Of a DNA stretch of 64,000 nt, positions 3,150 through 64,000 are shown one piece after another. Both the position numbers and the translations under genes were made by a program. The DNA is from an uncultured Candidatus Saccharibacteria bacterium. Its GTDB lineage: Bacteria; Patescibacteriota; Dojkabacteria; CAZCSM01. Location: NCBI GenBank assembly GCA_964501355.1, contig CAZCSM010000004.1, forward strand, positions 3,340 through 67,339, in the 5' to 3' direction. Below the pieces are notes generated by a model. It searched no databases and was not told where the DNA came from. It worked only from the letters and a program-made list of their open reading frames with translations. The stretch's first letter is position 1; each line of letters opens with the position of its first letter.

Positions 3150-5913
3150 TCTCCATTGCAGCCTTCATATTTTTCGCAAACTTTACCAAATTTTCACTAA
3201 CTATTTCACCCTCTTTGAATAAATCACTGCGGGATTTTCCTTCCTCTCTATATTCGAAAACAATTTCATCATGAATTTGGAGGAGCATTCTGGCCTCGAC
3301 TTTTTTATTTTCGCTTAGAAACAATTCTAGCGCGTCACTTGCCTCGATCATTGAAACCTTCATAATATCTGAAGCGGAAGACTGCATCGGGAAATTAATC
3401 GAAAATCTTTCTGCAGCTTTTCTTGCAGCAAAATTACTATTATTAATATTTCGAACAAGTGCTTTTCTGCCAAACATTGATTCCAAGTATCCATGCTCAT
3501 GGGCAAGCTCTTTTACCCGATCAATATACTTATGAATTTCCGGATATTCTTCGAAATAACGATCGATAATTTCTGCAGCCTCTTCCGGAGTTGCATTCAT
3601 TTGTTGTGATAAACCGTAGGCAGAAACTCCATAAAGGACTGCAAAATTTACTGTTTTTGCAACTCGACGTTGATCTTTTTTCACTTCTGCAACAGGAACA
3701 TCGAAGATTTCTGCAGCAGTGGCGGCATGAATATCTAAACCATTATTAAACGCAGCAAGCATTTTATCTTCTCCCGCAACATGAGCGGCTAATCGAAGTT
3801 CAATCTGAGAATAGTCAATTGCTACGAATACACTATCTTCTGATGCGATAAAGCATTTCCTAATTTCATTTCCCGATTTTGATCTAATCGGTATATTTTG
3901 TAAATTCGGATTCGAAGAAGACAGCCTACCGGTGATTGCAACAGCCTGATTATATGTGGTATGAATTTTCCCATCTTTTTGAATAAGTGGGAGAAGACCA
4001 TCAACGTAAGTTGAAACAAGTTTTGTCAGCTCACGATATTCTTCGATCGGCTTAATAATTGGATGCAAAGGCCGCAATTCCTCTAAGACTGATGCGGCTG
4101 TTGAATACCCTGTTTTTAATTTCTTCACCGGAGGAAGCTGCAGTTCTACAAAAAGAATATCTGCAAGCTGTCTTGATGAAGCTATGTTAAATTCATGACC
4201 TACAATCTCGTATATTTCCTTTTCAAGTGAAGAAACTTTCTTATCGAATTTTGACTTTAGCTCATGCAAATATGATTCGTCTACCAGAATGCCATTTGAT
4301 TCCATCTGTGCAAGAATCGAAAGTATCGGCATTTCCACTTTATAGAACAGATCTTTGACACCAACTCGATAATCGGGAAGAGCCATGAACTTTTCAAATT
4401 CGCCCTTTACCAGTTTCTTCCAAACTAATCCTGCAATTTTATCCTCTTCCTCAAGTCTCTTTTTTAAAATAGGTTGCAGCTTTGAAATAACAGAGACCAT
4501 TTTCCCACTATAACTTTCGATCAAAACAATACTCGTCGGCTTTTTATCTTCAACAACAGTCCCAAGTTCGGAAAAAGCCAAAGAACGAAGATCTAAATTG
4601 CCGCCGCTGAAACCAAGCAGATACGCAGCCAGCATAATATCAAATGTCATTCTGTGTGCCGAAATTCCGAGTTTCTCTAAAACGTGTAGATCAGATTTGA
4701 TATCATATCCGCATTTCTCGACTTCTATATTTTCGAAGAGAGTCTTAAAAGATGACAATGCGTTTCCCTTAATAATCTGGGCAGGAAGAACATACGACTC
4801 TTCCTCTTCAAAGTTTACAGATAGACATTCAAGTTCATTTTCTGCATTGATGCAGATGTGATATGAAAACGACTTTACGGAATTGGCCTTATCGAAGAAT
4901 TTCTCAACCTCAATTTGGTTCTGCAAAACTTTAGTATCCGTCGAGGATTGTTCCTGAATAGCTTCGGAAGAAAATAGTCCAATCTGAGTCTTATTTTTAC
5001 TCTCTCTGGTAGATTGAGGTAATCTTTTGATTAACGACCTGAACTGTAGTTCTTGAAAAAGATTGAGCACAGAATCTTTGTCATAGTCTGCTAGCACCGA
5101 ATCTTCATAATTTAAAGTGATTGGCACATCGGTAACAATTGTAGCTAGTTGTTTACTCATTATCGCAGATTCATGCTCCTCCGCAAACTTCTTGGCATAT
5201 CGTGATGGAACCTTGTCTAGATTTTCATAAATGTTCTCGACCGTACCAAACTCTTGCAGAAGGGTTGTCGCCCCTTTATCACCAACACCTTTAACTCCTG
5301 GAATTTCATCTGACGGATCTCCTGCAATTGCCTTGAGATCTATTATCTGTTTTGGCGCTAAACCGAAGCGTTCTTTCACTTCTTCAATTCCGTATAGCTT
5401 CATGTCTTTGAAAGTTTTCCCCGGCAACCAAACCTTTGTGTTTGCATCAATAAGTTGCAATGCATCTTTGTCACCCGTAACGATAATTGTGTTTACCTGA
5501 TTTTGGGGATCAAGTTCATCAATCTGACGACAAAGCGTTCCTATGACATCATCTGCTTCATAGCCCTCTACTGCAAATATGGGAATGTTCAATGCCTCTA
5601 CAACCTGTCTAACTCTGGCAAATTGGGGTTTCATCTCTTCATCCGGCTCACGGCGATTCGCCTTGTAACCGATGTACTCAAGATGGCGAAATGTTGGTTT
5701 TGGAAGATCAAATGCACAGGCGATATACGTCGGTTTTATCGTTTCCAGAACGTTGAATAGCATTGAGGTGAATCCATAAACAGCATTTACTTGCTCACCG
5801 GAAACGGTCGTTAAGGTTGAAGGATATGCATGGTATGCTCTGTGAATCAGAGCATTTGAATCAATTAATGCGAAGATTTCTTTACCATTATTATTGAAAT
5901 GCGCAACAGCCAT
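3064..5913 (-). CDS. polA: DNA polymerase I
   Basis: 949 aa. N-terminal 5'-3' exonuclease/FEN domain and a C-terminal family-A polymerase with motif B RRVAKTVNFAVLYG and motif C QIHDEIVFE. Confidence 0.9.
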   Translation of the reverse strand: MAVAHFNNNGKEIFALIDSNALIHRAYHAYPSTLTTVSGEQVNAVYGFTSMLFNVLETIKPTYIACAFDLPKPTFRHLEYIGYKANRREPDEEMKPQFARVRQVVEALNIPIFAVEGYEADDVIGTLCRQIDELDPQNQVNTIIVTGDKDALQLIDANTKVWLPGKTFKDMKLYGIEEVKERFGLAPKQIIDLKAIAGDPSDEIPGVKGVGDKGATTLLQEFGTVENIYENLDKVPSRYAKKFAEEHESAIMSKQLATIVTDVPITLNYEDSVLADYDKDSVLNLFQELQFRSLIKRLPQSTRESKNKTQIGLFSSEAIQEQSSTDTKVLQNQIEVEKFFDKANSVKSFSYHICINAENELECLSVNFEEEESYVLPAQIIKGNALSSFKTLFENIEVEKCGYDIKSDLHVLEKLGISAHRMTFDIMLAAYLLGFSGGNLDLRSLAFSELGTVVEDKKPTSIVLIESYSGKMVSVISKLQPILKKRLEEEDKIAGLVWKKLVKGEFEKFMALPDYRVGVKDLFYKVEMPILSILAQMESNGILVDESYLHELKSKFDKKVSSLEKEIYEIVGHEFNIASSRQLADILFVELQLPPVKKLKTGYSTAASVLEELRPLHPIIKPIEEYRELTKLVSTYVDGLLPLIQKDGKIHTTYNQAVAITGRLSSSNPNLQNIPIRSKSGNEIRKCFIASEDSVFVAIDYSQIELRLAAHVAGEDKMLAAFNNGLDIHAATAAEIFDVPVAEVKKDQRRVAKTVNFAVLYGVSAYGLSQQMNATPEEAAEIIDRYFEEYPEIHKYIDRVKELAHEHGYLESMFGRKALVRNINNSNFAARKAAERFSINFPMQSSASDIMKVSMIEASDALELFLSENKKVEARMLLQIHDEIVFEYREEGKSRSDLFKEGEIVSENLVKFAKNMKAAMENVIKLSIPLSVGVEIGNNLCELEEIDFE

Positions 5914-6463: not shown

Positions 6464-8320
6464 CTATTTACTTTTCTTCAAATAATCTTCCACAAACTTA
6501 TCATACTCCTCCATATCCATAACCTCTTTATCAAGAAGTTCTTTTGATAAGCTATCAAGAAGTTCTCTATGTTTCGTCAAAATATCAGTCGCGGTCTGCC
6601 AAGCCTTTTTAATAATAGCTTCGACTTCTTCATCAATGTCCTTTGCTGTCTCTTCAGAATAGTCCTTTCCCATGCCGTATCCATAGCCCAACGCTTCGCT
6701 TTCGTCATCCTGCCCGTATTTAACCATACCAAGTTTCTTGCTCATACCATACTGCTTCACCATATTTCTTGCAAGTTTCGAAGCGTTGGCAATGTCAGAA
6801 GACGCACCTGTCGTAACGTCACCAAAAACAAGCTCTTCTGCAGCATTACCTGCCATATCAATTGCAATTCTAGAGAGAAGCTTTGTCTTTGTTCGAAAAG
6901 TTTCATCCTTCTCTGGAAGCATCATAGTAACACCGGCAGCTCGTCCTCGAGTAATAATTGAAATCTTATGAACAGGATCAGATTCCGGAACAAATTTAGA
7001 AACAATTGCATGTCCTGATTCATGATATGCAGTAATTTCAAGATCTCTTTTTCCTTTCTTTCTATGCTTCTCTCGCCCCATTTGTACACGAACAGAAGCC
7101 TCTTCAATCTCACTAAATCCAATTTTATCCTTACCTCTTTGAACAGCCAATATCGCAGATTCGTTAAGCATGTTCTCAATATCAGCACCAGAGAAGCCAA
7201 CGGTTCTTCTCGCAATTCGCTCGAAGTCAACATCTTCCTCAACTGGTTTATTTTTTGCATGAATCTTTATAATTTCTTCACGACCCTGTACATCGGGAAG
7301 TTCCAAATAAACATGTCTGTCAAATCTACCAGGTCTAAGAAGGGCCGGATCGAGAACATCTGGTCTATTTGTTGCAGCTAGGACAATTACGTTATCATTC
7401 TTTTCGAAACCATCCATCTCAACAAGAATCTGATTCAACGTCTGCTCAGTTGCTCCGGAAGTAACATTTGTACCTCTTTTACGAGCTACAGCATCAATCT
7501 CATCAATGAAGATAATACAAGGTGATGCTTTCTTTGCTTTTTCGAATAAATCTCGAACACGAGAAGCACCCGCACCGACAAGCATTTCCTCAAATTCTGC
7601 ACCTGAAGTATGAAAGAATGGGACACCTGCTTCACCGGCAATTGCTCGAGCGAGCAAAGTTTTACCGGTTCCCGGAGGCCCGAAAAGAAGCATTCCCTTT
7701 GGAATTCTTGCTCCCATTTTTGAGAACTTCTTTGGATTCTTCAAAAACTCAACAACCTCTTCGAGCTCATCCTTCGCCTCATCACAACCCGCAACGCTTT
7801 TAAATGTTACATCCGGTTTTTTGCCAAAAATCATTCTTGCCTTGCTTTTGCCAAATTCAAAAATCTTTCCACCTGCACCTTGCATATTCTTGAGGAAAAT
7901 AACAATTAAAACAACAGTTCCTCCAAGAAGCAAAATATTTAAAATATCAGAAAAGTTAATTCTGAAAGTTGGAACATACTCAATTTTCACTTCAGACTGA
8001 GTAATATCAATACCTTCCTCATCCTGAAGAACTTTAACAATATCAAAACCGGGCTGAGTAAGGGCGTATACCATAGTCCCATCCAGCTTTTCAATCTCCA
8101 CCTTGTCATCACGAATCCGAACTTCATTTACGTTCTCCTCTTTTACCTCTCGAATAACATCATTTAATCCGACGAGCTCAGACTCTTTGTACCCTGCAAA
8201 AAAGTTGAATAGCGTAATTGCTATTATTACGGAAATTACAATTGTCGTAATTGAAAGACCCCTTCTCTTCGAAGGCAACTTTACTCTGACAATATTGGGA
8301 TTCTTCGTATTCTCTGCCAT
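6464..8320 (-). CDS. ftsH: ATP-dependent zinc metalloprotease FtsH
   Basis: N-terminal TM, AAA+ Walker A GPPGTGKT, second region of homology, and zinc motif HESGHA. 618 aa. Confidence 0.9.
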
Positions 8321-8658: not shown

Positions 8659-8737
8659 TGGTGGTGACGAGTGGAATCGAACCACCGACCTAGGGCTTAT
8701 GAGTCCCTCGCTCTAACCAACTGAGCTACATCACCAC
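8659..8737 (-). tRNA. tRNA with anticodon CAT (elongator Met or lysidine-Ile2)
   Basis: The reverse complement folds as a cloverleaf, GTGGTGATGTAGCTCAGTTGGTTAGAGCGAGGGACTCATAAGCCC...TCGTCACCACCA, with anticodon loop CTCATAA. Confidence 0.8.
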
Positions 8738-8767
8738 AAACTTTTATTAGGTTAGAAAGATCATAAA

Positions 8768-8842
8768 TGGTTGCGGGGGACGGATTTGAACCATCGACCT
8801 TCAGGTTATGAGCCTGACGAGCTGCCACTGCTCCACCCCGCG
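8768..8842 (-). tRNA. initiator tRNA-fMet (CAT)
   Basis: The reverse complement, CGCGGGGTGGAGCAG...GGCTCATAACC...GGTTCAAATCC...CCCCGCAACCA, is near-identical in design to E. coli tRNA-fMet, including the C1 mismatch and the CCCCGC 3' acceptor end. Confidence 0.8.
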
Positions 8843-24169: not shown

Positions 24170-25744
24170 TTGCTCTGTCCTTGCGACAGTCTCCAAAATG
24201 CAGATGCCCCCTTAGTCATATTTGGCATTATGGATAAACCAAACGCAATTTTATACACGAGAGTATCCTCAGAACGACAAGTTGAAAACACTAGTCTTGA
24301 TGAGCAGGAAAAATATGGTAAGCAATATTGTGATAAAAAAGGACTCCATCTAGTGAGTGTTTTCCGAGAAGAAGGAGAATCGGCCAAGACGGACGATAGA
24401 ACACAATTAAAAAACGCACTTGCATATTGTTCTTCAAAAAAGAATGATATTAAATTCTTCCTAGTTTATCGGTATGACAGATTTTCCCGTTCTGTAGAAC
24501 ATCACCATAGTCTCAAAGCCGCACTAAGTAATTGGGGGGTTAGAGTAGTCTCGATGACTGAAGAAGTTGATGACTCTCCAGAAGGTAAGTTTCTCGAAAA
24601 CATTCTTGCCGCAGTTGCACAACTAGATAATGACAATCGTTCTGTTAAATCAAGCAATGGAATGAAGGCTATTTTGGAACAAGGACTCTGGCCATTTCCC
24701 CCACCCTACGCATACATAAAAGGCAAAGAAAACATCAACAAAGTAAACCCTCTTATTCCCGACCCAGAAAGATTCGACCTAATCAAAAAGGGATGGCAAA
24801 TGATGCTAACAGGAAGATACAAAAGCGTAGAAATCGTAAAAGAGCTTAATAATCAAGGATGTACGACAAGAACTGGGAAAAAGATGACTGAGGGACTAAT
24901 ATCCAGAGTGTTTAATAATCCGTTCTATGCAGGACAAATAAACTGCCCTAAATTTAATATTAAGGAAATTGAAGGGAAACACATGCCAATGATTAGCATT
25001 GAAGAGTTCTACAGAGTCCAAAAAATTATCAGTGACCAATCAACATCAAAGAAAGTTCCTCATAGCAAATATAATCCCGATTTTCCTCTCAATAAGATAA
25101 TATACTGCACGCACTGCGGAAGAGTTCTAACAGGAAGTTGGGCAAAGAAACATCTGGGACTTGGTTATTATAGATGTCTAAATTCAGAATGTAATAACAG
25201 AGACGGCAATAGTAAGGATGGTATTGAAGAAAGCTTTATAGAATTACTTAGAAGAATTAAGCCAACTGAAAAGCTACAACAACTATTTAGATTGGTGGTA
25301 AAAGACGTTTTTGAAAATAAGTTATCAGAGAAAGTTTCTTCCAAAAAGACAATCGAACAAAATCTACGAAAACTTGAAGAACAGAAGGTAAGAATTGAAG
25401 AACTATTGGAACAAGGTGTTTATGATGTTGATAAATATCGACTGAAGATATCAAAAATCTCACCAGAAATAGAAACTCTGAAGATTAACATATCTGAAAC
25501 AAACATAGAGATTTACGACCTTGAAACCTATGTGAATTACGCACTTCAATTTATTAACAATTTACCAGACTACTGGTTACAACTTCCGCCAGAAGCGAAA
25601 CATAAACTTAATTGGGCGATTTTCCCTAAAGGGTTAAAGATTCAAAATGGGAAAGTTACAACCGACGAATTAGCCAGTATTTATACAGATATTCAGGAGA
25701 TTGCGAAGCATAGGGTTACAAATGGTGGGCCTTCTGAGATTTGA
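24170..25744 (+). CDS. large serine recombinase (resolvase/invertase catalytic domain + recombinase domain + zinc ribbon)
   Basis: N-terminal catalytic domain with AILYTRVSSERQ (catalytic Ser) and FLVYRYDRFSRS. Recombinase domain and a Cys-rich ribbon (CTHCGR...C...C). C-terminal coiled coil. The likely start is the internal MDKPNA. The 3' end overlaps the tRNA by 22 nt. Confidence 0.8.
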   Translation: MLCPCDSLQNADAPLVIFGIMDKPNAILYTRVSSERQVENTSLDEQEKYGKQYCDKKGLHLVSVFREEGESAKTDDRTQLKNALAYCSSKKNDIKFFLVYRYDRFSRSVEHHHSLKAALSNWGVRVVSMTEEVDDSPEGKFLENILAAVAQLDNDNRSVKSSNGMKAILEQGLWPFPPPYAYIKGKENINKVNPLIPDPERFDLIKKGWQMMLTGRYKSVEIVKELNNQGCTTRTGKKMTEGLISRVFNNPFYAGQINCPKFNIKEIEGKHMPMISIEEFYRVQKIISDQSTSKKVPHSKYNPDFPLNKIIYCTHCGRVLTGSWAKKHLGLGYYRCLNSECNNRDGNSKDGIEESFIELLRRIKPTEKLQQLFRLVVKDVFENKLSEKVSSKKTIEQNLRKLEEQKVRIEELLEQGVYDVDKYRLKISKISPEIETLKINISETNIEIYDLETYVNYALQFINNLPDYWLQLPPEAKHKLNWAIFPKGLKIQNGKVTTDELASIYTDIQEIAKHRVTNGGPSEI

Positions 25745-25799
25745 ACTCAGGACCCCTGCTTTATAAGAACAGTGCTCTCACCAACTGAGCTAAAGGCCC
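25723..25799 (-). tRNA. tRNA with anticodon TAT (tRNA-Ile, AUA-reading)
   Basis: The reverse complement is GGGCCTTTAGCTCAGTTGGTGAGAGCACTGTTCTTATAAAGCAGGGGTCCTGAGTTCAAATCTCAGAAGGCCCACCA. It has a 7-bp acceptor stem, a canonical D-arm and T-arm, the anticodon loop CTTATAA with U33 and A37, and an encoded CCA. Confidence 0.6.
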
Positions 25800-29317: not shown

Positions 29318-31448
29318 TTTCTATTATTCTGAAACCATCAAGTATATACAACCTATTGTTTGCGACGTCAACTGCAACTTCTTTCAAATCGTTAAAGAAA
29401 CGTTCTTCTCCCTCTTGAACAGCAAACTGTTTCTCCATCTTGAAAAGAACAGAACCACCTTCCGGTTGTTTAAGTAAAACAACCCTTCTTCCAGCTCTAT
29501 CTAATATAATTGCATACGAGTAGGCAAACAAATCGAATTTTCCTGTGTCGGTTAACTCGCCAACTTCATCGCTAATTTCAATATTATCTTCAAATCGCAT
29601 GAAATTCCCACCATCTCCTAATGTATATATTACATGAGTAATTTCGATATCTTCAGCATTTGAAAACAGAGGATCCTCAGCTCGGACCTGTGGATATGAA
29701 AATCCTGAACCGACGGGAGAAGACTTTTTTACTTTGCTTTCACTTGAGACAAGAAAATATAAAGAACCGTCATTTTCATAAACCGCAATTTCGGTGACAT
29801 CACCAAGAGTTGTTGGATTTAGTCCCGTAACTGAACTCAAGGTATATGAACCGTCATCTCCTTTTTTCGCAGAAAACAAGCCCTCTTCCGCATCGTAAAT
29901 GTATAGAGTATCATCAATTGCCTCCAAATATGCGGGTTTGCTTAATCCATCTGCTCTACCAAAAACGGCTGTTGCAGTTCCATCTGAAGGAGACACACGA
30001 TAAACAACACTAGAATTTGAATCGGACACCCATAAGTTATTGTCAAAAAGTATCAAATCATCAAGTTCTGCGTTTTCATACTCAATCTTTAAATCCGCTA
30101 TAACATTTGGATCCGCAAGCCTGACCCTTTTCTCTATCTGATCAACAATAACTTTTGCTTCAATAGCTAATTGATTAGCGCTGTTATTCTCGACTTCAAA
30201 ACCGGAAAGCTTTTCTGCATCAGTGATTACTCCCAATAGCATATTTCGAGATTCACCAGCATTATACGAAGCCATCGATGTCGCCTCCGATAATGTATTC
30301 TCGATTCGGGAATACTCGGCGGTATAATGTTCCTGAAGTTCGCGTGTAGCATTTTCCGATTTAATCCACCGCACACTTAAAAACAGTCCTACTCCAAAAA
30401 GAATAATACAAACTATCAACAGAATTCTTCGGAACTTTAACCTTTGAGTACTTTCAGTTTTATATTTTGATCTACCGCCGAAACCTACAATCGTCTCGAA
30501 AACCCAAGACCCTACAGAACCAAGTATACGAACAAATTTTGATAATGCTTTTTTTAGAAAAGGAAGAACACTTGTCCGGAAAATTGTAGAAGCATTTGAT
30601 AAAGCAGACTTAAATCGAGATTCTTCCCCGATCATAGGAACCCCCGAATCCTCACCCACCTCTTCTAACTCATATTGAAAATCTTCGTCAACAACCATTT
30701 CCTTCAAATCATCTTCCGGCAAATCAACGTTCTCTTCTTCAGCGACATCGACTGTAGACATGTCCTCCTCCTCCGTAATAACCTCTCCACTCTCTTCTTT
30801 ATCATCATCCTCAGATTCCTCTTGCTCGGGGACACTGATACCTTCTTCAATATCATCAACAGCATTAGCAAACTCCTCGACAGAAACCTTATCGCCTATA
30901 ACCATAGAGAAGTTCTCTAGAATTTGATTAGCAGAAGTTTCAAAACCCGCAGGAAAGTATAAGACGGAATTAGGAGACAATAGAAATAAGTCAGCACCAC
31001 CTACTTTTCCACTAATGACCTTTATAGATGCATCTTCCACCAGCGAAGAAAAGTTCAATATCTTCTCCCCTCTCCCCATATAACAGCCGGATTTCCCTAA
31101 CAAACCGATGTAGACATTTTCCCCCAGGAAAAGCAAAATACACACTCTAACGGAGAGACTATCATCATACTCTGCACCTTCTGAAGTGAAAACTGTCTTG
31201 CTGGAATCTTTGAGTTGATGCAATATTGAATCTAAGAGCTTAATTCTATCATCCTCAACTGAATTCATGACAAGATCCAAGGCAGATTGAGAGAGATATT
31301 TCCCTATCTTTTCCAGATCTAATTTATCATTATCTAGGTGGATGACACCGAAGACCCCTCCTCCACTCCATGTTTTGGAAAATGGGATGGAACGCTGATT
31401 TGCAAGACCATCTTTGAGTTCAAAGACTTGGCTTTTCAGATTTAACAT
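29301..31448 (-). CDS. hypothetical bitopic membrane protein (central TM; C-terminal beta-rich, propeller-like domain)
   Basis: 715 aa with a TM near aa 330-350. The C-terminal half has a repetitive beta-strand pattern (YIYDAEEG..., LYFLVSSE..., LYILDGF...). Confidence 0.4.
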   Translation of the reverse strand: MLNLKSQVFELKDGLANQRSIPFSKTWSGGGVFGVIHLDNDKLDLEKIGKYLSQSALDLVMNSVEDDRIKLLDSILHQLKDSSKTVFTSEGAEYDDSLSVRVCILLFLGENVYIGLLGKSGCYMGRGEKILNFSSLVEDASIKVISGKVGGADLFLLSPNSVLYFPAGFETSANQILENFSMVIGDKVSVEEFANAVDDIEEGISVPEQEESEDDDKEESGEVITEEEDMSTVDVAEEENVDLPEDDLKEMVVDEDFQYELEEVGEDSGVPMIGEESRFKSALSNASTIFRTSVLPFLKKALSKFVRILGSVGSWVFETIVGFGGRSKYKTESTQRLKFRRILLIVCIILFGVGLFLSVRWIKSENATRELQEHYTAEYSRIENTLSEATSMASYNAGESRNMLLGVITDAEKLSGFEVENNSANQLAIEAKVIVDQIEKRVRLADPNVIADLKIEYENAELDDLILFDNNLWVSDSNSSVVYRVSPSDGTATAVFGRADGLSKPAYLEAIDDTLYIYDAEEGLFSAKKGDDGSYTLSSVTGLNPTTLGDVTEIAVYENDGSLYFLVSSESKVKKSSPVGSGFSYPQVRAEDPLFSNAEDIEITHVIYTLGDGGNFMRFEDNIEISDEVGELTDTGKFDLFAYSYAIILDRAGRRVVLLKQPEGGSVLFKMEKQFAVQEGEERFFNDLKEVAVDVANNRLYILDGFRIIEIDIDE

Positions 31449-41835: not shown

Positions 41836-43491
<1,656 letters not shown>

Positions 43492-43593: not shown

Positions 43594-43884
43594 TTATTTT
43601 ATTATCGCCAACACATCCTCTTCCGACATAATCAAATAATCCTCATCTTCCAACTTAACTTCATCTGGAGAATATTTCTTAAATAGAACCATGTCGTCTA
43701 CTTTTACTGAAAACTCTACTTTTGTACCATTGTCTAAAATACGTCCGGTTCCAAGAGCAATAACCTTTCCTTTTTGAGGTTTTTCTTTTGATGCAGTTGA
43801 AGGAATAATTACCCCTGATGCCGTTACAGAATCATCTTCAACGGCCTGCACCACGATGTTTCCTCCTAGTGGCTGTAAATTCAT
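43594..43884 (-). CDS. groS: co-chaperonin GroES (Cpn10)
   Basis: 96 aa with a mobile loop. Sits immediately upstream of groEL. Confidence 0.9.
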   Translation of the reverse strand: MNLQPLGGNIVVQAVEDDSVTASGVIIPSTASKEKPQKGKVIALGTGRILDNGTKVEFSVKVDDMVLFKKYSPDEVKLEDEDYLIMSEEDVLAIIK

Positions 43885-44300: not shown

Positions 44301-46430
44301 CTACTCTTCAGTCGTTTCTACAGTTTCAGCTTCACCCTTATCCACCTCCAACTTCACCTCAATCTTCCCCTTAATCGTCGGAACGTGTTTGAATTTCTCA
44401 GGAAGCCAATCAGGCCCAAGGGTTAACTCAAAACTAGTAATTGATTCAAGAGAATTCATAAATGACTCAACATCTTCGACTTTTTTTCCTGCAATTGATT
44501 CTTTGACCGAAGTCTCCGTAATATCACCAGAAATCACTCCCATCGCCTTCATAATTATAATTGCATCATCACCATCCCTACGAATGAAATCACCAGAATA
44601 TTCAGATTGCTCTTCTAGCAACTTCAACCCGGTAGCAACCTGCGAAAGAAGCAATTGATTTCCAAGTGTCTTAATATCATCTGCAGAATAAACGTATGCC
44701 CGAGCTTTAACTTTCATATTCAAATTAACCGCACTTGTCTCTGCGCCTGCTTCAACATCATAATTCTCTTCAACTGTTTCAACGCTAATCATTTCATCTC
44801 GAATTTCGAAACCGCTTCCCACCTGAGCCTTAACCTTGTTTTTAACTTTTTCTTGAAGAGATTGCTCCAAGGACTCCTTTAATAATCTTCTATCATCTGC
44901 AGTAACAACGACAACCTCTTTCTTTGTACCGCCAGAGAAAGCAGCGAAACTCCTGCCCAACATTGCCGTAGAGGTAAACCCTTCAACCACAAATTCAGTA
45001 CCTGATGCCAAATTGTATTCTTCACCAATGTCATATGCTTCGACACTAACTTCCGCTTTTCCTAAACCTGCGAAATAATCGGTTTTAGGAATATTCTCAT
45101 TATTTAAAAGTTTGAACTTGTAACCATCCCCTGTCATAACCGTACCTGCATTAATTTGTATATCCGATTCTGTTTTATTAACCAATGTAACTTTTCCTTT
45201 CGCTTTTTCACCACGAACCTCATTTCCTGTCGCGGCACGAGAATCAGATCCGCTTTCTTCCACTTCTTGCATCACAAGAGGAATTTTTAAATTTTCTAAA
45301 TCAACATCGGTATCTTGCAAACTAGCTCGAATTTCTTGTTCTAAATTAACAGTTTCATATTTTACCTGAGCGGTTAATGTAGCCTCAGGAGCAACGAAAT
45401 ATGCATATACTCCACCTACTCCGGCAAGAATTAATAAAATAATAATAATCGGGATTAATAATTTTGCATTGAATTTCGGCATCCCAAATTTCGGAAGTTT
45501 AATTGCACTTAAAATCCGCTTTGGATTGAGTTTCTCACGAACAGGTTCTTTTAACTCATAACTCGTCATATCCCGTCCAACAGCGTGAAGATTATCGCTT
45601 TTCTCCTCCTCTTCAGAATGAAAATCTGAAACAAATTCTCTCTTTTCAATAATCTTTTCCGGTTTTTTGCTAATAATTCCCCTATCAATTTTAGCAACAT
45701 CTTGCCCAACAACAAAACCAAATTCCTCTAAGCTAGGTTCTGTTGAAACTTCTTGATCAACTATTTCTTTCTTCTCTTTATTACGCAGGAAAGAAGGAGT
45801 TTCGGTATCTTCCTCTATTTCTAAACTCTCCGCTTCAAGTTGTTTCTCAGTATCATAAAAATCATCAGAATCAGTGTCAGGAACAGTTACAGTTACAGGA
45901 GCAGTTTCAACTCCAGAAACAAGCTCATCCTCCTTTGTCGTTTGTCCTTTGTCTTTCTTGTCTGCCGTAGCCTTGGCGAAGGCGGATGACGTTTGACTTT
46001 CAGACTCAACAATTCCATCATCGCCTTCAACTTCAAAATTTTCTTCTTTCTTTTCTCTTTCTTCATCCTTCTTTCCTAGTACCGGATTCATCCCCCTCTT
46101 TCTCAATCTGTTCTCAGATTCTAACCAAATACCCTCACTTATATCTGCGACTCTTTTAAGCACGGGAACTCCTGCACGAGTTGCAAATTTTTGAGCGCCC
46201 TCGTCAAGGGTAACAAGGACCAAGCTTTTCCCACGTTTGAAAACAAGCTTCGATAATAATTTGAGTGAAACTAAGGACGAAATGACAGCAGCCCCTTCCG
46301 GAGCAACTAAAACAATTCGATCCGCCTCTGCATCACGAATTCGCTCAACGACAAAAGTAATTTCGTCATCTAAATCTACAAATATTTTTTCGTCCTGTTT
46401 ATTAAGCATTTCAATGAAACTTCTAAACAA
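44301..46430 (-). CDS. hypothetical bitopic membrane protein
   Basis: 709 aa. N-terminal ~110-aa cytoplasmic domain, an acidic low-complexity linker, a TM (LLIPIIIILLILAGVGGVYAYFV), and a ~370-aa extracytoplasmic domain. Lies downstream of ftsA. Confidence 0.4.
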   Translation of the reverse strand: MFRSFIEMLNKQDEKIFVDLDDEITFVVERIRDAEADRIVLVAPEGAAVISSLVSLKLLSKLVFKRGKSLVLVTLDEGAQKFATRAGVPVLKRVADISEGIWLESENRLRKRGMNPVLGKKDEEREKKEENFEVEGDDGIVESESQTSSAFAKATADKKDKGQTTKEDELVSGVETAPVTVTVPDTDSDDFYDTEKQLEAESLEIEEDTETPSFLRNKEKKEIVDQEVSTEPSLEEFGFVVGQDVAKIDRGIISKKPEKIIEKREFVSDFHSEEEEKSDNLHAVGRDMTSYELKEPVREKLNPKRILSAIKLPKFGMPKFNAKLLIPIIIILLILAGVGGVYAYFVAPEATLTAQVKYETVNLEQEIRASLQDTDVDLENLKIPLVMQEVEESGSDSRAATGNEVRGEKAKGKVTLVNKTESDIQINAGTVMTGDGYKFKLLNNENIPKTDYFAGLGKAEVSVEAYDIGEEYNLASGTEFVVEGFTSTAMLGRSFAAFSGGTKKEVVVVTADDRRLLKESLEQSLQEKVKNKVKAQVGSGFEIRDEMISVETVEENYDVEAGAETSAVNLNMKVKARAYVYSADDIKTLGNQLLLSQVATGLKLLEEQSEYSGDFIRRDGDDAIIIMKAMGVISGDITETSVKESIAGKKVEDVESFMNSLESITSFELTLGPDWLPEKFKHVPTIKGKIEVKLEVDKGEAETVETTEE

Positions 46431-46552
46431 ATTTCACAAATCAGAAATCGGAAACTTCGTTTCCTAGATTCCTCATTACATTCGGAATGACACTCCATTG
46501 GTGTCATGCTGAGTCCACGAAGTGGACGAAGCATCTAGCGAAGCGTTCTCTA

Positions 46553-47779
46553 TTATTTATCCTCTTTTATAACCTCCAAAGCAAACCTCGCAAGAGCCGC
46601 AGGTGTTACATCAGAAGGCTCGTTCAGACTCCCCGTATCATCAATAATGTTTCTTGTTTGATCAACAAGGAAATAATTTACCTTCGGGAATTTATTAAAA
46701 CTCAAAACTTGAGTCCATGGATATTCTAACAAAGCCTCTTTGATTTCCGGCAGCAAGCTTCCTCCTCCACAAAGGAAAATGTACGATGGATAAACTTCAA
46801 TATCTTCAATTTCGCTTAACGCCAACTCTACCCCGCTAATCCAAACTTCAATATCTTTTCGAATTGCCTTTCGAACCTTATCGGCGACATCGTCAGAAAG
46901 ACTTCCTGACGAGTATCGAATTTTCATTTCTTCCGCTTGTTTAAAATCGATATTTAAATCTGCAGAAATTCTTTTTGTAAAAACTCGACCTCCAAATGCG
47001 AACATTTGAGTGTCAACAATACCACCTTTTCGTACAACGGCAATATCCGTTGTACCACCACCAACATCAATAAATATCGCGCCAAAGTTCTGATCATTTG
47101 CATTTTTATATGCCTGAGAAACAACAAATGGTTCTGCAACAATTGTCATTACTTTTAATCCCAATTGTTCAGCAATGTGTCGCAGTGCATTAAAGTGAAT
47201 CGCAGGAGCAAATGAGGCAAATACATTAAACTGCACAGATTTGCCTTGGAATCCGAAAGGATTTGTTACTCGGAAATTATCAATATAGGTATCTGTGATA
47301 TTTGCATTAACAAGCTGAATTTGTGAGCGATCAATTCCAAGTTCTATCGAAAGCTCCTCTGCAGCATGATCAAAAGCCTCAGCCTTAATGTTGTTCATTA
47401 CCTGAGCAATCTCCTTCTTGTCAATCTTTTCGCTTGGAACTTCTCTATCATAGTGAGCAGCAACAGAAACACCTTTCACGAATTCCCCCGCAATTCCCAT
47501 TATAACCTCTTCTAATTTTTCTCTTTTTTCCAATATTTGAGAAACATCTTCTATTGCGAGACGACATGCCTCAACTACACTTTCAATATTTGTAATCGCG
47601 CCACCTTTCATTGCGTCCGGTTGTTGGCGAATTTTACTTGCAGAAGTAATATGAATGAAACTATCATCCGCAGGATCAAGTTTGAAAATGATTGCTTTGA
47701 CAAACTCCGTACCGATATCAAGAGCCAAAAGAGGCTTATCTTTATACGTTGATTTTGTAGGAATAAATGGAAGTCTCAA
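46553..47779 (-). CDS. ftsA: actin-like ATPase, FtsA family (PilM not excluded)
   Basis: Phosphate-1 motif LALDIGTEFVKAII, phosphate-2 motif IFIDVGGGTTDIAV and adenosine motif FLCGGGSLLPEI. 408 aa. Confidence 0.55.
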   Translation of the reverse strand: MRLPFIPTKSTYKDKPLLALDIGTEFVKAIIFKLDPADDSFIHITSASKIRQQPDAMKGGAITNIESVVEACRLAIEDVSQILEKREKLEEVIMGIAGEFVKGVSVAAHYDREVPSEKIDKKEIAQVMNNIKAEAFDHAAEELSIELGIDRSQIQLVNANITDTYIDNFRVTNPFGFQGKSVQFNVFASFAPAIHFNALRHIAEQLGLKVMTIVAEPFVVSQAYKNANDQNFGAIFIDVGGGTTDIAVVRKGGIVDTQMFAFGGRVFTKRISADLNIDFKQAEEMKIRYSSGSLSDDVADKVRKAIRKDIEVWISGVELALSEIEDIEVYPSYIFLCGGGSLLPEIKEALLEYPWTQVLSFNKFPKVNYFLVDQTRNIIDDTGSLNEPSDVTPAALARFALEVIKEDK

Positions 47780-47873: not shown

Positions 47874-47992
47874 TGTCATCTCGACCGAGTCCACCGTAGC
47901 CTTGGCGAAGGCGGATGAGCGGAGAGATCTTTTGAATTTTGTTAACAGAAAGATTTCTCGAATCGCTTCTGTGAAGCTCCCTCGAAATGACA
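47874..47992. repeat. MITE-like element with terminal inverted repeats TGTCATCTCGA…TCGAAATGACA
   Basis: 119 bp. The left module is TGTCATCTCGACCGAG…GAGCGGAGAGATCT and the right module is AGATTTCTCGAATCGCTTCTGTGAAGCTCCCTCGAAATGACA. The right module recurs identically at 48477..48520. Confidence 0.6.
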
Positions 47993-48015
47993 TACTGAAG
48001 AGTAACCCAAAGTTG

Positions 48016-48058
48016 TGTCATTTCGACCGAGTTCCAAAGGAACGAGTGGAGAAATCTT
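48016..48058. repeat. partial copy of the MITE-like element (left module only)
   Basis: TGTCATTTCGACCGAGTTCCAAAGGAACGAGTGGAGAAATCT, abutting the GIY-YIG gene stop. Confidence 0.5.
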
Positions 48059-48060
48059 TA

Positions 48061-48354
48061 TTATAACAATATCTCCTCATACAAATCTTTCCATTCAGGG
48101 TTCTTCGTCATAATCAAAGTCTCTTTCTTACCTCTACCCCATCGTTTCAATTGCTTCTCTCGTTCGATCGCAACGTTTACATCCTCATAAGTTTCGTAAT
48201 AAACCAATTTATTTATATTATACTTTTTCGTAAACCCATCAATGACTTTTTCTCGATGTTGCCATGTCCGCTTACGCAAATCGCCAGTAACGCCGATGTA
48301 CAGGACGTTATGATTAAAGTTCGTTAGAATATAAACGTAATACTGCTTATTCAT
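48061..48354 (-). CDS. GIY-YIG nuclease family protein
   Basis: YYVYILTNFNHNVLYIGVTGDLRKRTWQH matches the GIY-(10-11)-YIG motif with the conserved Arg. 97 aa. Confidence 0.7.
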   Translation of the reverse strand: MNKQYYVYILTNFNHNVLYIGVTGDLRKRTWQHREKVIDGFTKKYNINKLVYYETYEDVNVAIEREKQLKRWGRGKKETLIMTKNPEWKDLYEEILL

Positions 48355-48433
48355 AAATTAATGATATTAGATTTCTACATTCTTTACTACGCAATTCAGT
48401 CGAAATGACAGAAAAACACCAAAACAAAATGTT

Positions 48434-48520
48434 GTCATCTCGACCGAGCTACTTAGTAGCGAGTGGAGAGATCTAAAAAGATTTCTCGAATCGCTTCTGT
48501 GAAGCTCCCTCGAAATGACA
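48434..48520. repeat. MITE-like element, second full copy
   Basis: TGTCATCTCGACCGAGCTACTTAGTAGCGAGTGGAGAGATCT…AGATTTCTCGAATCGCTTCTGTGAAGCTCCCTCGAAATGACA. An isolated right-TIR remnant, TCGAAATGACA, sits at 48400..48410. Confidence 0.6.
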
Positions 48521-48770
48521 CACGCCCCTTGCCCCTCAAGACTATAAGTTGTATAATACATTCAACTTAATAGATACATCTCTAGAAACCAAGCGTTCAA
48601 TAAACGAACCGAAGTAACAGTAGGAGATTTGTGATGAGCAACATCATTAAAAAATAAATGTTGCGAAATCCACCGAAGCCTTGGCGAAGGTGTGACCGAA
48701 AACAAATACAATCGTTTAATAAAACACTTGACTAGAGAAATTCTAGAAAAGTGTTTTTTAATTTAGAAAA

Positions 48771-49160: not shown

Positions 49161-49744
49161 ATGAAGATTACAGTAGTTGCATCGAAGAAAAGCAAGGAAA
49201 ACGCGGAACGCGCAAAGAAGATTGCCAAGATTCTCAAGAAAGCAGGATATAATGTAGATGATTCAATGCTTAAGAAAACACGAGAAGCAGAAAGAAAGGA
49301 GTTTTCCAAAACCTATAAAACCAACATCGATCTATAATGAATGCGGATGTTGTCATCGCAGAATCAACCCTATACAGTGCAGGGCTAGGATTTCTAATTG
49401 CCACTGCAGTTAATGAAAGAAAACACGTTCTTTGTCTTGAAGACATAGAATCAGATGAGGAGATGAAAGGTTCAGGAACCCTTCAAGCAGCAGAGTCAAA
49501 CATGCTAACTTACAAGAAATATAATACGGTTACATTAAAAAGGGTGTTAACCGATTATTTGGAAGATGTAAAAGGCAGGTTAGATACAAAGTTCATTCTT
49601 ATTATTTCACCTGAAATAGACAAGTTTCTCAAGTGGGCATCATATGAATACAGGTTACACAAATCTCAAATCGTTCGAGATGCTATTGAGGATATTATGA
49701 AAAACGACGAGAACTATCAGAAATATCTACGCAAAGAGGAATAA
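49161..49744 (+). pseudogene. frameshifted paralog of the 51373..51969 NDT-like/RHH gene
   Basis: ORF 49161..49337 (MKITVVASKKSKENAERAKKIAKILKKAGY…) aligns with the N-terminus of the 198-aa paralog. ORF 49337..49744, in the +2 frame, aligns with the rest (…KFILIISPEIDKFLKWASYEYRLHKSQIVRDAIED…). The two are joined at ATAATGA by a 1-nt frame change. Confidence 0.5.
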
Positions 49745-49822
49745 TTAGTCATAAATTTTAAGAGAGGACCATCGAAGGATGGTTCTCTTTTGTTATTTAT
49801 CAAATAGATTCATCACGATAAG

Positions 49823-51372: not shown

Positions 51373-51969
51373 ATGAAAGTAAATTTTGCAGGAGCAATTA
51401 CTGATGACAAATCAGCAAAAGAAAGATACGCCAAAATTAAGGCAGCCGTTAGCAAAAGCGGAAGCACCGTTACTCATAGACAACATGAGAAACTTTCTAC
51501 CGGAGAAATTTTAAAAAGAACCGACAAAGAGATAAAAGATTCATATAAACTCATAACTATGAGTATGAAATCAGCCGATGTATTCATCGCTGACATAACA
51601 CTTCCTAGCGTCGGAGTTGGCGTAGAAATAGCACAGGCTATGGAAGAGAGAAAGCCAACATTGGTTTTAAGATACAAAAATGAAAAGGAAGCACCGATTG
51701 CTAATATCAAGGCGAATCAAAGTGTACTGATGACGTACAGAGAATATGATGATAACAATATTGAAGAAATCATTGCAGATTTTCTCAAAGAAGCAAAGGA
51801 AAAACTCGACACCAAATTCATCCTTATTATCTCTCCTGATATTGATAAGTATCTAAAGTGGGCTTCTGATGAATACAGAATGCACAAAGCACAAATCGTT
51901 AGAGATGCTATCGAGGATAAAATGAAGAAAGATAAAGATTACAAGGATTATTTGAAATTGGCTGCATAA
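51373..51969 (+). CDS. nucleoside 2-deoxyribosyltransferase-like (NDT/DNPH1-fold) domain fused to C-terminal ribbon-helix-helix-like domain
   Basis: N-terminal MKVNFAGAI… plus …ADVFIADITLPSVGVGVEIAQAMEERKPTLVL matches the NDT-family pattern (yfAGp … d.gtafE.GyA.a.gKP). C-terminal KFILIISPDIDKYLKWASDEYRMHKAQIVRDAIEDKM has a strand-helix-helix RHH look. Confidence 0.4.
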   Translation: MKVNFAGAITDDKSAKERYAKIKAAVSKSGSTVTHRQHEKLSTGEILKRTDKEIKDSYKLITMSMKSADVFIADITLPSVGVGVEIAQAMEERKPTLVLRYKNEKEAPIANIKANQSVLMTYREYDDNNIEEIIADFLKEAKEKLDTKFILIISPDIDKYLKWASDEYRMHKAQIVRDAIEDKMKKDKDYKDYLKLAA

Positions 51970-62636: not shown

Positions 62637-63926
62637 TTATCTACTTTTTAACGATGTAATTATCTTCTCTGCAGCCTTCTCTCCAACACCCTTCAATTCC
62701 ATCAATTCCTCTTTGTTCATTTTCTTCAAGTCGTCGACTGATTTACCTGCGTCTTTGATTGATTTAACAACCCTAGCCGTCAATCCGAGTAATTCTAGTT
62801 TATCCTTTGATTCTTTAACAGATTCCTTTGTAGAAACTTCTTCCTCAACATCCTTGGAAACAACCTCTGCTGCTGCACTTCCAATAATCTTTCCTTCTGG
62901 ACCAGAGATATCAATCTTCCAACCTGTGAGTTTTGCTGCCAATCGTACATTCTGACCTTCTTTTCCAATTGCTAATGACAATTGATCCTCAGGAACCTTT
63001 ACAACAGCAGTCTTTGATTTCTCATCTATCTTTACGTCAAGGACTTCAGCTGGAGACAAAGCATTTGCAATAAAGTTTGCGATGTTCTCATCCCAAAGGA
63101 TAATATCAATCTTTTCTCCACCCAATTCATCAGTAACTGCATTAATTCGAATTCCTCTCTGACCGACACATGAACCGATTGGATCTACACCTTCCTGTGT
63201 TGACCAAACAGCAACCTTGCTTCTTGAACCGGATTCTCTTGCGACAGATTTAATTTTAACAGTACCCGTTGAAATTTCAGGAACTTCGAGTTCGAATAAA
63301 CCAGCTAAGAATTCAGGGCATGCTCTAGAAACAACCATTTGTTGATTTCCAGCAACTTCTTTTGCTTTCTTCAAGTAGAATTTCTTTCGTGTACCAGCCT
63401 TGTAGAATTCGCCAACAATTTGCTCTTCAGGAGGCATAGTTACTGTAATTCTATCAACTTCAATAATTACACTTCTTCCGCTCATTCTCTGGATCGTACC
63501 CGTTTGGATTGTGTCTTCTTTCTCTTTGAACTTGTTAACGAGGACGTCTCTCTCAGCCTCCCGAACCTTTTGCATAATAACCTGTCTTGCAACCTGTGCT
63601 GCTAGACGACCAAATCCTTCTTCAGGAGTTACATCAACTTCAACATGATCACCTTTCTTTAGTCTTGGTTCAAGTTCTTTTGCAACATCAATGTTAATCT
63701 GTGTCTTGTCATCAGTAACTTCATCAACAACTTTTTTATCAGCAATCATTCGGATTTCTCCTGTTTCTCTGTTAAGTTCTGTATAGATTGTTTCTCCTTC
63801 GCCGTAGTACTTTTTGTAAATTGTAAGCATTGCCTGCTCGATAGCAACGAATACTTCTTCTGCATTAATGCCTCTTTCCGAAGCCAATTGCTGAACAGCT
63901 GCCATAAATTCTGAGTGAGTTGTCAT
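62637..63926 (-). CDS. nusA: transcription termination/antitermination factor NusA
   Basis: N-terminal NusA_N, then S1, two KH domains and a C-terminal HhH tail (…LMELKGVGEKAAEKI…). 429 aa. Confidence 0.9.
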   Translation of the reverse strand: MTTHSEFMAAVQQLASERGINAEEVFVAIEQAMLTIYKKYYGEGETIYTELNRETGEIRMIADKKVVDEVTDDKTQINIDVAKELEPRLKKGDHVEVDVTPEEGFGRLAAQVARQVIMQKVREAERDVLVNKFKEKEDTIQTGTIQRMSGRSVIIEVDRITVTMPPEEQIVGEFYKAGTRKKFYLKKAKEVAGNQQMVVSRACPEFLAGLFELEVPEISTGTVKIKSVARESGSRSKVAVWSTQEGVDPIGSCVGQRGIRINAVTDELGGEKIDIILWDENIANFIANALSPAEVLDVKIDEKSKTAVVKVPEDQLSLAIGKEGQNVRLAAKLTGWKIDISGPEGKIIGSAAAEVVSKDVEEEVSTKESVKESKDKLELLGLTARVVKSIKDAGKSVDDLKKMNKEELMELKGVGEKAAEKIITSLKSR

Positions 63927-64000
63927 TTTTTCTATAATTTAAATATTAATTTCACATGTCATTCCGCACAGCGTAGCGTGATGCGGAATCTCGGACTATG

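Follow-up and report, generated by a model that had tools for sequence, protein, structure and literature searches.

A probable Ssn-type single-stranded DNA endonuclease gene amid its hairpin repeats in a Patescibacteria genome

Results

Oriented hairpin repeats surround a small GIY-YIG gene

The stretch of DNA analysed here, hereafter the window, comprises 64 kb of contig CAZCSM010000004.1 (assembly GCA_964501355.1) from an uncultured bacterium of the Patescibacteria and has a GC content of about 38%; all repeat counts at the home locus refer to this window. Beyond an FtsA-like gene, a 1-kb intergenic gap holds an intact open reading frame (ORF) on the minus strand, in which an earlier note, made from the letters of this DNA, had recognised a GIY-YIG nuclease of 97 aa. 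A Pfam search bore this out, and the gene, hereafter ssn, lies amid a family of short repeats (Table 1). Repeat finding combined with alignment revealed that the repeat unit is a single oriented hairpin of the form TGTCAT-stem...stem'-ATCT. An invariant TGTCAT is followed by a variable 5' arm, which pairs with a complementary 3' arm, and then by an invariant ATCT; the loop is variable and sometimes carries a small hairpin of its own or an insert. The window contains nine such units at three sites, all of them intergenic: six units of 42–57 nt lie between 47874 and 48520, and three more at 46466-46536 and 63957-63991.

[quoted passage not shown] The sequence TGTCAT[CT]TCGA indeed occurs six times in the window, always within 47874-48520, but as the head of self-contained hairpins rather than as a terminal inverted repeat. 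The second full element begins at 48433, not 48434, and the block shared by both is 42 nt as the note wrote it; counting the AA in front of it brings it to the claimed 44 nt (47949-47992 = 48477-48520); within it, units B and F are identical. The supposed half-copy at 48016-48058 is a complete 42-nt unit, and the remnant at 48400-48410 is the head of unit D, which is full-length though degenerate, being 76% identical to unit C with only a 5-bp basal stem left. The sequences quoted at 46503-46535 and 63958-63990 are correct, and unit G had gone unlisted. Since A+B, C+D and E+F are each arranged head-out, the stretch 47874-48520 can be described as three tandem head-out pairs, the middle one of which encloses ssn.

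Table 1. Genes, hairpin units and insert modules in the window
Feature	Position	Strand	Description
groEL	41836-43476	minus	
groES	43594-43884	minus	
709-aa gene	44301-46430	minus	
FtsA-like gene	46553-47779	minus	
ssn	48061-48354	minus	Intact ORF; 97-aa single-domain GIY-YIG nuclease, Ssn family
Unit A	47874-47930	+	57 nt; arms like C and E; 30-nt module (47889-47918) in loop
Unit B	47951-47992	-	Pairs with A as gene-less head-out doublet 47874-47992
Unit C	48016-48057	+	3'-flanking unit of ssn, 3 nt past stop codon, opposite strand, head outward
Unit D	48369-48410	-	5'-flanking unit of ssn, coding strand, 14 nt upstream of ATG, degenerate
Unit E	48433-48474	+	78% identical to C; gene-less doublet with F
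Unit F	48479-48520	-	With E, gene-less head-out doublet 48433-48520, 4-nt spacer
Unit G	46466-46492	-	27 nt; stem ATTCC/GGAAT; in 122-nt gap between FtsA-like and 709-aa genes
Unit H	46502-46536	+	35 nt; stem ATGCT/AGCAT plus inner 6-bp stem; head-in pair with G
Unit I	63957-63991	+	35 nt; stem ATTCCGCAC.../...GCGGAAT; intergenic, 31 nt beyond start of ORF 62637-63926
Insert module	47889-47918		In loop of unit A
Insert module	45960-45989	+	28/30 identical to 47889-47918; within 709-aa coding sequence; not a hairpin-family member
Insert module	48668-48697	+	Weaker copy, 67%; intergenic; no significant hairpin (z +0.5)

The repeats are far more numerous than expected by chance. Defined as TGTCAT, a stem of at least 5 bp and ATCT, the hairpin is found at 10 sites in the window against 0.32 expected, and the same definition yielded at most 2 sites in any of 300 random sequences. 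The tenth site (31273-31347), which lies inside a coding sequence and has a 65-nt loop, is probably due to chance. Likewise, TCGAAATGACA with up to one mismatch occurs 10 times compared with 2.2 expected. The basal stems covary across units (ATTTC/GAAAT, ATCTC/GAGAT, ATTCC/GGAAT, ATGCT/AGCAT): three of the five pairs are changed on both sides and pairing is 100% across the nine units, partly by construction because the hairpin scan required it. Folded as free DNA hairpins, only units H (-8.5 kcal/mol, z -3.5) and I (-8.4 kcal/mol, z -3.4) are clearly better than shuffled sequences; most units fold like shuffles (z -0.5 to -1.1). A search of the whole window at the Rfam gathering thresholds returned three tRNAs only, and thus no known RNA family accounts for the repeats.

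The gene product resembles the Ssn nucleases

A pairing of this kind was published in 2025 by Chenal et al. (Nat Commun 16:2388; PMC11893778), who described Ssn nucleases together with Ssn-related motifs (SRMs). In Neisseria, the repeat termed NTS, CGTCATTCCCGCGMAVGCGGGAATCYRG, includes dRS3 and is accompanied across bacteria by ssnA, a single-domain GIY-YIG gene of 94 aa (CDD cd10448). For SsnA of N. meningitidis to bind, the hairpin must be in single-stranded DNA (ssDNA), which the enzyme cuts a few nucleotides upstream of the hairpin; it is inactive on the reverse strand, on double-stranded DNA and on RNA. Cleavage is governed by three nucleotides (GTC) before the palindrome and binding by a C after it. 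The enzyme tolerates loss as well as extension of the loop, whereas a change of stem sequence abolishes activity even when the structure is kept. Cutting is also abolished by the substitutions Y6A, Y17A and E64A, and ssnA limits transformation by DNA that bears NTS (PMC11893778).

The window protein has the single-domain build and, with 97 aa, the size (about 94–100 aa) of an Ssn nuclease. PF01541 (GIY-YIG) covers its residues 4-75 with an E-value of 1.6e-13, and no other Pfam or NCBIfam family matches. More than 8000 homologues are detectable, typically of 93–100 aa, and among the best 120 matches the identity is 57–70%. Aligned with 25 homologues, it retains all 29 invariant columns, which include Y8, Y19, R29, H33, E66 and N85. 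The spacing Y-11-Y-47-E formed by Y8, Y19 and E66 equals that of Y6, Y17 and E64 in SsnA. For the family assignment, a homologue from Neisseria sp. (P0122) served as proxy for N. meningitidis SsnA (NMV_0044/NMB0047), which was not among the best 120 matches of a search seeded with the Neisseria sp. protein; P0122 and the window protein share 53% identity over 94 aa (E 3e-37). At the locus of P0122 (L048), NTS-like units CGTCATTCCGGCG.AGGCCGGAATC and CGTCATGCCGACG.AGGTCGGCATC alternate around ssn.

A tblastn search found no second copy of ssn in the window, and a sequence search of the PDB with the 97-aa protein gave no match at E <=0.01. No sigma-70-like promoter was found upstream of the gene in a promoter scan. 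Neither the ssn product nor the neighbouring genes contain a transposase domain, and the only gene within the matching ends is the GIY-YIG gene itself.

Hairpins accompany the gene across phyla

The earlier note had also proposed testing whether paralogues of the gene elsewhere are likewise flanked; most homologues in other genomes are. We sampled 80 homologous loci, one genome per species, from Clostridia, Calditrichota, Cloacimonadota, Patescibacteria, Chloroflexota, Alpha-, Beta- and Gammaproteobacteria, Bacteroidota, Cyanobacteria, Actinomycetota, Omnitrophota, Acidobacteriota, Verrucomicrobiota and Spirochaetota, and scanned them for GTCAT, a stem of at least 5 bp and ATC within 150 nt of the gene. 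Such a hairpin is present in 69 of the 80 loci. An upstream unit on the coding strand occurs in 54 loci, a downstream unit on the opposite strand in 45, and the complete layout, hairpin(+)-gene-hairpin(-), in 36; the commonest distance from the gene ends is 0–25 nt. The window shows this inverted layout as well, with D 14 nt upstream and C 3 nt downstream of ssn and both heads outward. A count of 6-mers made independently of the hairpin scan gave a matching picture: TGTCAT and GTCATT are enriched 16–18 times in the 80 nt upstream of the homologues, and ATGACA 15 times in the 80 nt downstream. The stems vary by taxon (ATTCCCGC, ATTTCGA, ATCCTGA, ATTGCGA, ATCCCGA), whereas GTCAT and ATC are constant. 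The homologue of Caldithrix abyssi, for instance, has CTGTCATTTCGACGAGCCCGCCCGCGGGCGAGGAGAAATCT upstream and an inverted counterpart downstream. No second ssn copy lies within 2 kb in any of the 80 loci.

For a reciprocal scan, metagenome contigs were picked solely on the presence of the window's SRM subtype, which is common there (at least 120 loci). Among the 120 loci listed (792 kb), an ssn homologue is present in 4, in every case within 104 nt of a unit; most SRM copies in this set are thus gene-less.

The gene calls for two homologues, P0011 at its N-terminus and P0064 at its C-terminus, extend into the flanking hairpins. The extensions are peptides translated from SRM DNA, such as ...SGEIF... 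and ...DFSLRSK, and through such public gene calls SRMs put spurious, conserved-looking peptides into protein databases.

Gene-less units form head-out doublets and orphan-head stacks

In the metagenome loci listed, adjacent units form 81 pairs, of which 64 are inverted head-out doublets whose spacer has a median length of about 20 nt. The two full elements of the earlier note, A+B and E+F, are therefore genuine examples of a recurring form. In shape, the doublets are REPIN-like. The note had proposed a check for target-site duplications at the element ends; neither A+B nor E+F has one, and none was found at 130 head-out doublets pooled from all loci scanned, where direct repeats of 2–4 and 6 nt stay at chance level. 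A single excess, at k=5 and offset 2 (5 against 0.25 expected), may stem from tandem arrays. The flanks of the doublets are conserved only at -1 and +1, where T is found in 74% and 70% of cases, respectively.

A second arrangement consists of orphan heads, that is, tandem copies of GTCAT and a 5' arm without the 3' arm, situated upstream of a complete unit at a distance of 17–59 nt (median 27). For 597 complete units, the count is 87 orphan heads upstream (in 49 loci) and 1 downstream, compared with 6 and 5, respectively, for orphan tails. Orphan heads thus stack on the side where Ssn reportedly cuts. They occur in L002 (1060-1290 and 1860-2360), L010, L027, L051, L066, L070 and 43 other loci; the window itself has none. 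Head-out doublets and orphan heads are not mentioned in the text of Chenal et al. 2025 (PMC11893778).

Two assemblies of Caldithrix abyssi (L001 and L002) differ in cassette number, one having a single ssn cassette at this locus and the other two in tandem, separated by a long orphan-head array. This reflects either a real change in copy number or a collapse of repeats in the older assembly. In a metagenome-assembled genome of Caldithrix (L003), the stretch of L001 with the orphan-head array is shorter. When all 200 loci were compared with one another by megablast for presence/absence polymorphism, only these three Caldithrix loci could be aligned; they differ by the tandem cassette copy, and two of them also by the length of the orphan-head stretch, differences that may in part be due to assembly collapse.

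A separate 30-nt module lies inside one hairpin loop

The 25-mer CCGTAGCCTTGGCGAAGGCGGATGA is the core of a 30-nt module with a 5-bp hairpin of its own, one copy of which forms the insert in the loop of unit A. The earlier note was right that this sequence recurs inside the 709-aa coding sequence, although the matching positions are 45965-45989 and 47894-47918, not 45960-45984 and 47892-47916. Its placement of this fragment, and of 48664-48697, in the hairpin family did not hold. The copies at 45960 and 48668 lack the TGTCAT...ATCT arms, and the module thus stands outside the family. The copy in the coding sequence is read in frame as SSAFAKATAD, which forms part of an acidic linker in the 709-aa protein; this linker is not conserved in the syntenic homologue from L084, a relative of the window whose GroEL is 77% identical. 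None of the other 200 loci fetched contains the module.

Genomic surroundings and comparison with a relative

The best named matches to the GroEL encoded in the window come from Ca. Dojkabacteria, at 68% identity. The gap between the FtsA-like and 709-aa genes that houses units G and H spans 46431-46552. The orthologous gap of L084 contains an SRM doublet (6695-6756) with different stems in the opposite arrangement. One L084 unit has an exact Neisseria-type core, GTCATTCCCGCGTAGGCGGGAATC. Two intergenic stretches of L084 (about 5290-5330 and 6800-6840) additionally hold a second and unrelated hairpin repeat, CCTCAC.TTAGTCCTCTCC...GGAGAGGGGA.

Farther along the window, the ORFs 49337-49744 and 51373-51969 bracket a segment without synteny to L084. 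They appear to be paralogues, as both resemble a nucleoside 2-deoxyribosyltransferase-like gene of L084 (2030-2629). Directly after the first of them lies a terminator-like hairpin (49748-49801), GAGAGGACCATC-GAAG-GATGGTTCTCTTTTGTT; its match to GTCAT...ATC is coincidental and we did not count it as an SRM. The window also encodes a tRNA-Ile with anticodon TAT (25723-25799), which is uncommon in bacteria, and two adjacent tRNAs with anticodon CAT (8659-8842), one of which could be a lysidine-type tRNA-Ile or an initiator.

Discussion

The anatomy of the units, their excess over chance, the homology of the protein and the pairing of gene and hairpin conserved across phyla are all direct observations. 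Taken together, they make it very probable that the locus is an Ssn-type gene for a site-specific ssDNA endonuclease standing amid its cognate hairpin repeats, an assignment made from sequence. The feature is real and non-random and is explained by the system published in 2025; the locus is hence a further example of a known system. The link between repeats and nuclease that the earlier note had drawn stands as far as targeting is concerned, given the hairpins beside 69 of the 80 homologues and the ability of SsnA to cut such hairpins in ssDNA, whereas mobilisation by the protein is a hypothesis of the authors of the Ssn study only (PMC11893778).

Comparing the window with SsnA and NTS reveals a close likeness. 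In both systems, the GIY-YIG protein has one domain, a length of about 95 aa and the same spacing of catalytic residues, the gene stands between inverted hairpins, and copies without a gene are dispersed between genes. The hairpins agree in having GTC, a palindrome AT...AT, then C, and a variable loop; the experimentally critical positions, GTC 5' of the palindrome, the palindromic stem and the C 3' of it, are present in all nine window units. The differences lie in the stem, which is AT-rich in the window (ATTTCGA.../...GAGAAAT) and ATTCCCGC/GCGGGAAT in Neisseria, in the length of the ssn-proximal units (42–57 nt) with their second-tier inner hairpin, and in the flanking bases, T...T as opposed to C...CYRG. 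The host is a member of the Patescibacteria, and the window system is known here from its sequence.

Several points weigh against this assignment. The published SRM pattern, HGTCWYN(0-2)YYVSBRHN(0-5)WNVSBRGN(0-2)RNCYNB, finds nothing in the window, where 0.08 matches would be expected by chance, and picks out only 18 of the 80 related loci, compared with 69 by the structural definition. The complete pairing of the stems was in part imposed by the scan, and unit D, which flanks the gene on its 5' side, lacks the inner pairing. Moreover, a single enzyme may be unable to act on all units, because the stems of G, H and I differ and stem sequence matters; these three may be relics or the targets of another paralogue. 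The published pattern is limited to hairpins that are short (up to about 35 nt) and G+C-rich. We dropped it as a detector here, yet did not count it as evidence against membership: that it finds none of the window units makes them a variant outside the curated definition, and the window repeats are such an SRM variant with an AT-rich stem.

The same hairpin family includes the Neisseria dRS3/NIME repeats (ATTCCC-N8-GGGAAT), and the units of L048 alternate in orientation around ssn much like the tandem pairs of the window. By definition, dRS3 is an unoriented 20-bp palindrome, and it is a known target of phage integration; the units of the window have an orientation, exceed it in length and are much less numerous in the sequence analysed. 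Repetitive extragenic palindromic (REP) sequences and their associated tyrosine transposases (RAYTs) provide a parallel. REP/BIME and REPIN repeats, too, are short extragenic hairpins found mostly as inverted doublets without target-site duplications, and the accompanying gene is usually single-copy and repeat-flanked, its product recognising the repeats as ssDNA hairpins. RAYTs, however, are HUH/Y1 enzymes that form a covalent DNA intermediate and can rejoin strands, whereas Ssn is a hydrolytic GIY-YIG enzyme of another fold and chemistry. The window protein matches PF01541 only, which rules it out as a RAYT of the IS200/IS605 superfamily. With the IS200/IS605 elements themselves, in which TnpA peels and pastes ssDNA, the ssn cassette shares a very small size, sub-terminal hairpins read as ssDNA and cleavage a few nucleotides away from the hairpin. 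Their hairpins lie on one strand and their enzyme excises and reinserts a circle, unlike the Ssn hairpins, which lie on opposite strands and are served by an enzyme without known joining activity. Our literature searches returned no paper joining GIY-YIG with repetitive extragenic palindromic sequences, and no relevant one for GIY-YIG with MITEs.

The mechanism in this organism is most likely that of N. meningitidis SsnA and NTS, by homology with which we infer both the biochemical activity and the biological role. Each unit presents T-GTC, a stem starting with AT, a short or extended loop, the complementary stem ending in AT, and C-T. The 97-aa protein would bind this hairpin only in ssDNA, be it incoming transforming DNA or DNA exposed during replication or repair, would recognise GTC on the 5' side of the palindrome and C on its 3' side, and would hydrolyse the strand a few nucleotides 5' of GTCAT. 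The complementary strand, duplex DNA and RNA would be left uncut. As only the GTCAT strand would be nicked, on its 5' side, a head-out pair would have two cut sites just outside the pair, one on each strand. Such cutting would trim repeat-bearing ssDNA or limit its recombination, as in Neisseria transformation. A role in limiting this recombination may be suggested for the window system on the same analogy, speculatively, and the repeats probably multiply as a by-product.

That the repeats are themselves mobile is the most substantial rival reading; it overlaps with that of an Ssn gene and its recognition hairpins, to which it adds movement. The earlier note had suggested a mobile or palindromic repeat family. 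A dispersed palindromic family it is, but the MITE reading fails: MITEs such as the Correia elements are likewise short, gene-less, intergenic and multi-copy with inverted termini, yet they have target-site duplications and a cognate insertion sequence (IS) of the DDE type. SRM doublets have no such duplications, no transposase domain is encoded by ssn or its neighbours, and the apparent terminal inverted repeats are the conserved heads of two self-contained hairpins, each of which is also found singly. More generally, the hairpin-ssn-hairpin cassette could be an active, autonomous IS-like element, and the gene-less doublets its MITE- or REPIN-like derivatives, copied via GIY-YIG nicks. An IS-like architecture of NTS-ssnA-NTS, and its analogy with REP/RAYT, was noted by the authors of the Ssn study, who offer an IS-like origin followed by domestication as a hypothesis only (PMC11893778). 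The predominance of head-out doublets among gene-less units points the same way, the identity of B and F over 44 nt suggests recent copying, and the gene is absent from 116 of the 120 metagenome loci listed with the window's SRM subtype. The cassette sits at a break of synteny with L084, where the 10 kb examined to that side of groEL contain no ssn, and in the orthologous gap that separates the FtsA-like gene from the one next to it, window and L084 have SRM pairs of different sequence and orientation. However, because the flanking genes on that side differ too, no insertion boundary can be defined in L084, and no precise empty site was found. The 130 doublets show no target-site duplications, no second ssn was found in the window or within 2 kb in the 80 loci, and in the sole multi-copy case seen, Caldithrix, the cassette is duplicated in tandem at one locus. 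By their chemistry, GIY-YIG enzymes belong to the hydrolytic nucleases and not to the strand-transferases; they form no covalent intermediate and cannot join strands themselves, and with one cleavable site per strand of a pair, excision by the enzyme alone is not expected. We regard active mobility as unlikely. Similarly doubtful is the idea that cassettes and doublets constitute a new class of mobile element, whose only enzyme is a hydrolytic, ssDNA-specific GIY-YIG nickase and whose copying is completed by host replication or repair. The lack of target-site duplications would fit this idea; the three tandem pairs of the window could then be successive copies, and orphan heads, stacked on the side of the cut, could be footprints of the copying reaction.

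Two further explanations carry far less weight. If the units acted as regulatory or RNA hairpins, serving as terminators, attenuators or stabilisers of mRNA as some REPs do, the closeness of the GIY-YIG gene would be incidental. All nine are intergenic stem-loops, and the folds of H and I are significantly better than those of shuffled sequences (z about -3.4), but most units show no such advantage, the stems are not followed by a T-tract, a terminator scan found nothing at the unit sites, and the units stand in both orientations. No Rfam family matches them, the oriented pairing of gene and hairpin is conserved across phyla, and SsnA does not bind the RNA form (PMC11893778). This explanation is strongly disfavoured and we consider it highly improbable. 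Just as hard to sustain is a free-standing homing endonuclease that cuts a duplex target in a neighbouring gene and leaves the repeats as scars of repeated homing. GIY-YIG is a classic homing-endonuclease fold, with catalytic fold and motif shared by I-TevI and I-BmoI, and the gene is small, placed between genes and patchily distributed. Those enzymes, however, are cutters of duplex DNA equipped with a linker and a DNA-binding domain, whereas the window protein is a bare catalytic domain: every characterised GIY-YIG homing enzyme requires a DNA-binding domain at its C-terminus, for which 97 aa leave no space. The gene is not associated with an intron, an intein or a phage, its neighbours being chromosomal (FtsA-like, groES, groEL), no homing enzyme in the PDB was matched at E <=0.01, and the characterised relatives leave duplex DNA uncut (PMC11893778). 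We give this origin almost no credence.

With the locus read as an Ssn gene and its SRMs, what would otherwise be a hypothetical GIY-YIG protein with inverted repeats can be named as an Ssn-family ssDNA endonuclease and its recognition hairpins. Since the window variant keeps only the experimentally critical positions (GTC, the basal stem and C), the published pattern probably yields too low a count of SRMs, especially for homologues far removed from the Neisseria type. Each Ssn/SRM pair is also a candidate site-specific ssDNA cutter for biotechnology. The locus provides an Ssn example from a Patescibacteria genome, and Patescibacteria are believed to rely on taking up DNA, which in Neisseria is modulated by SsnA.

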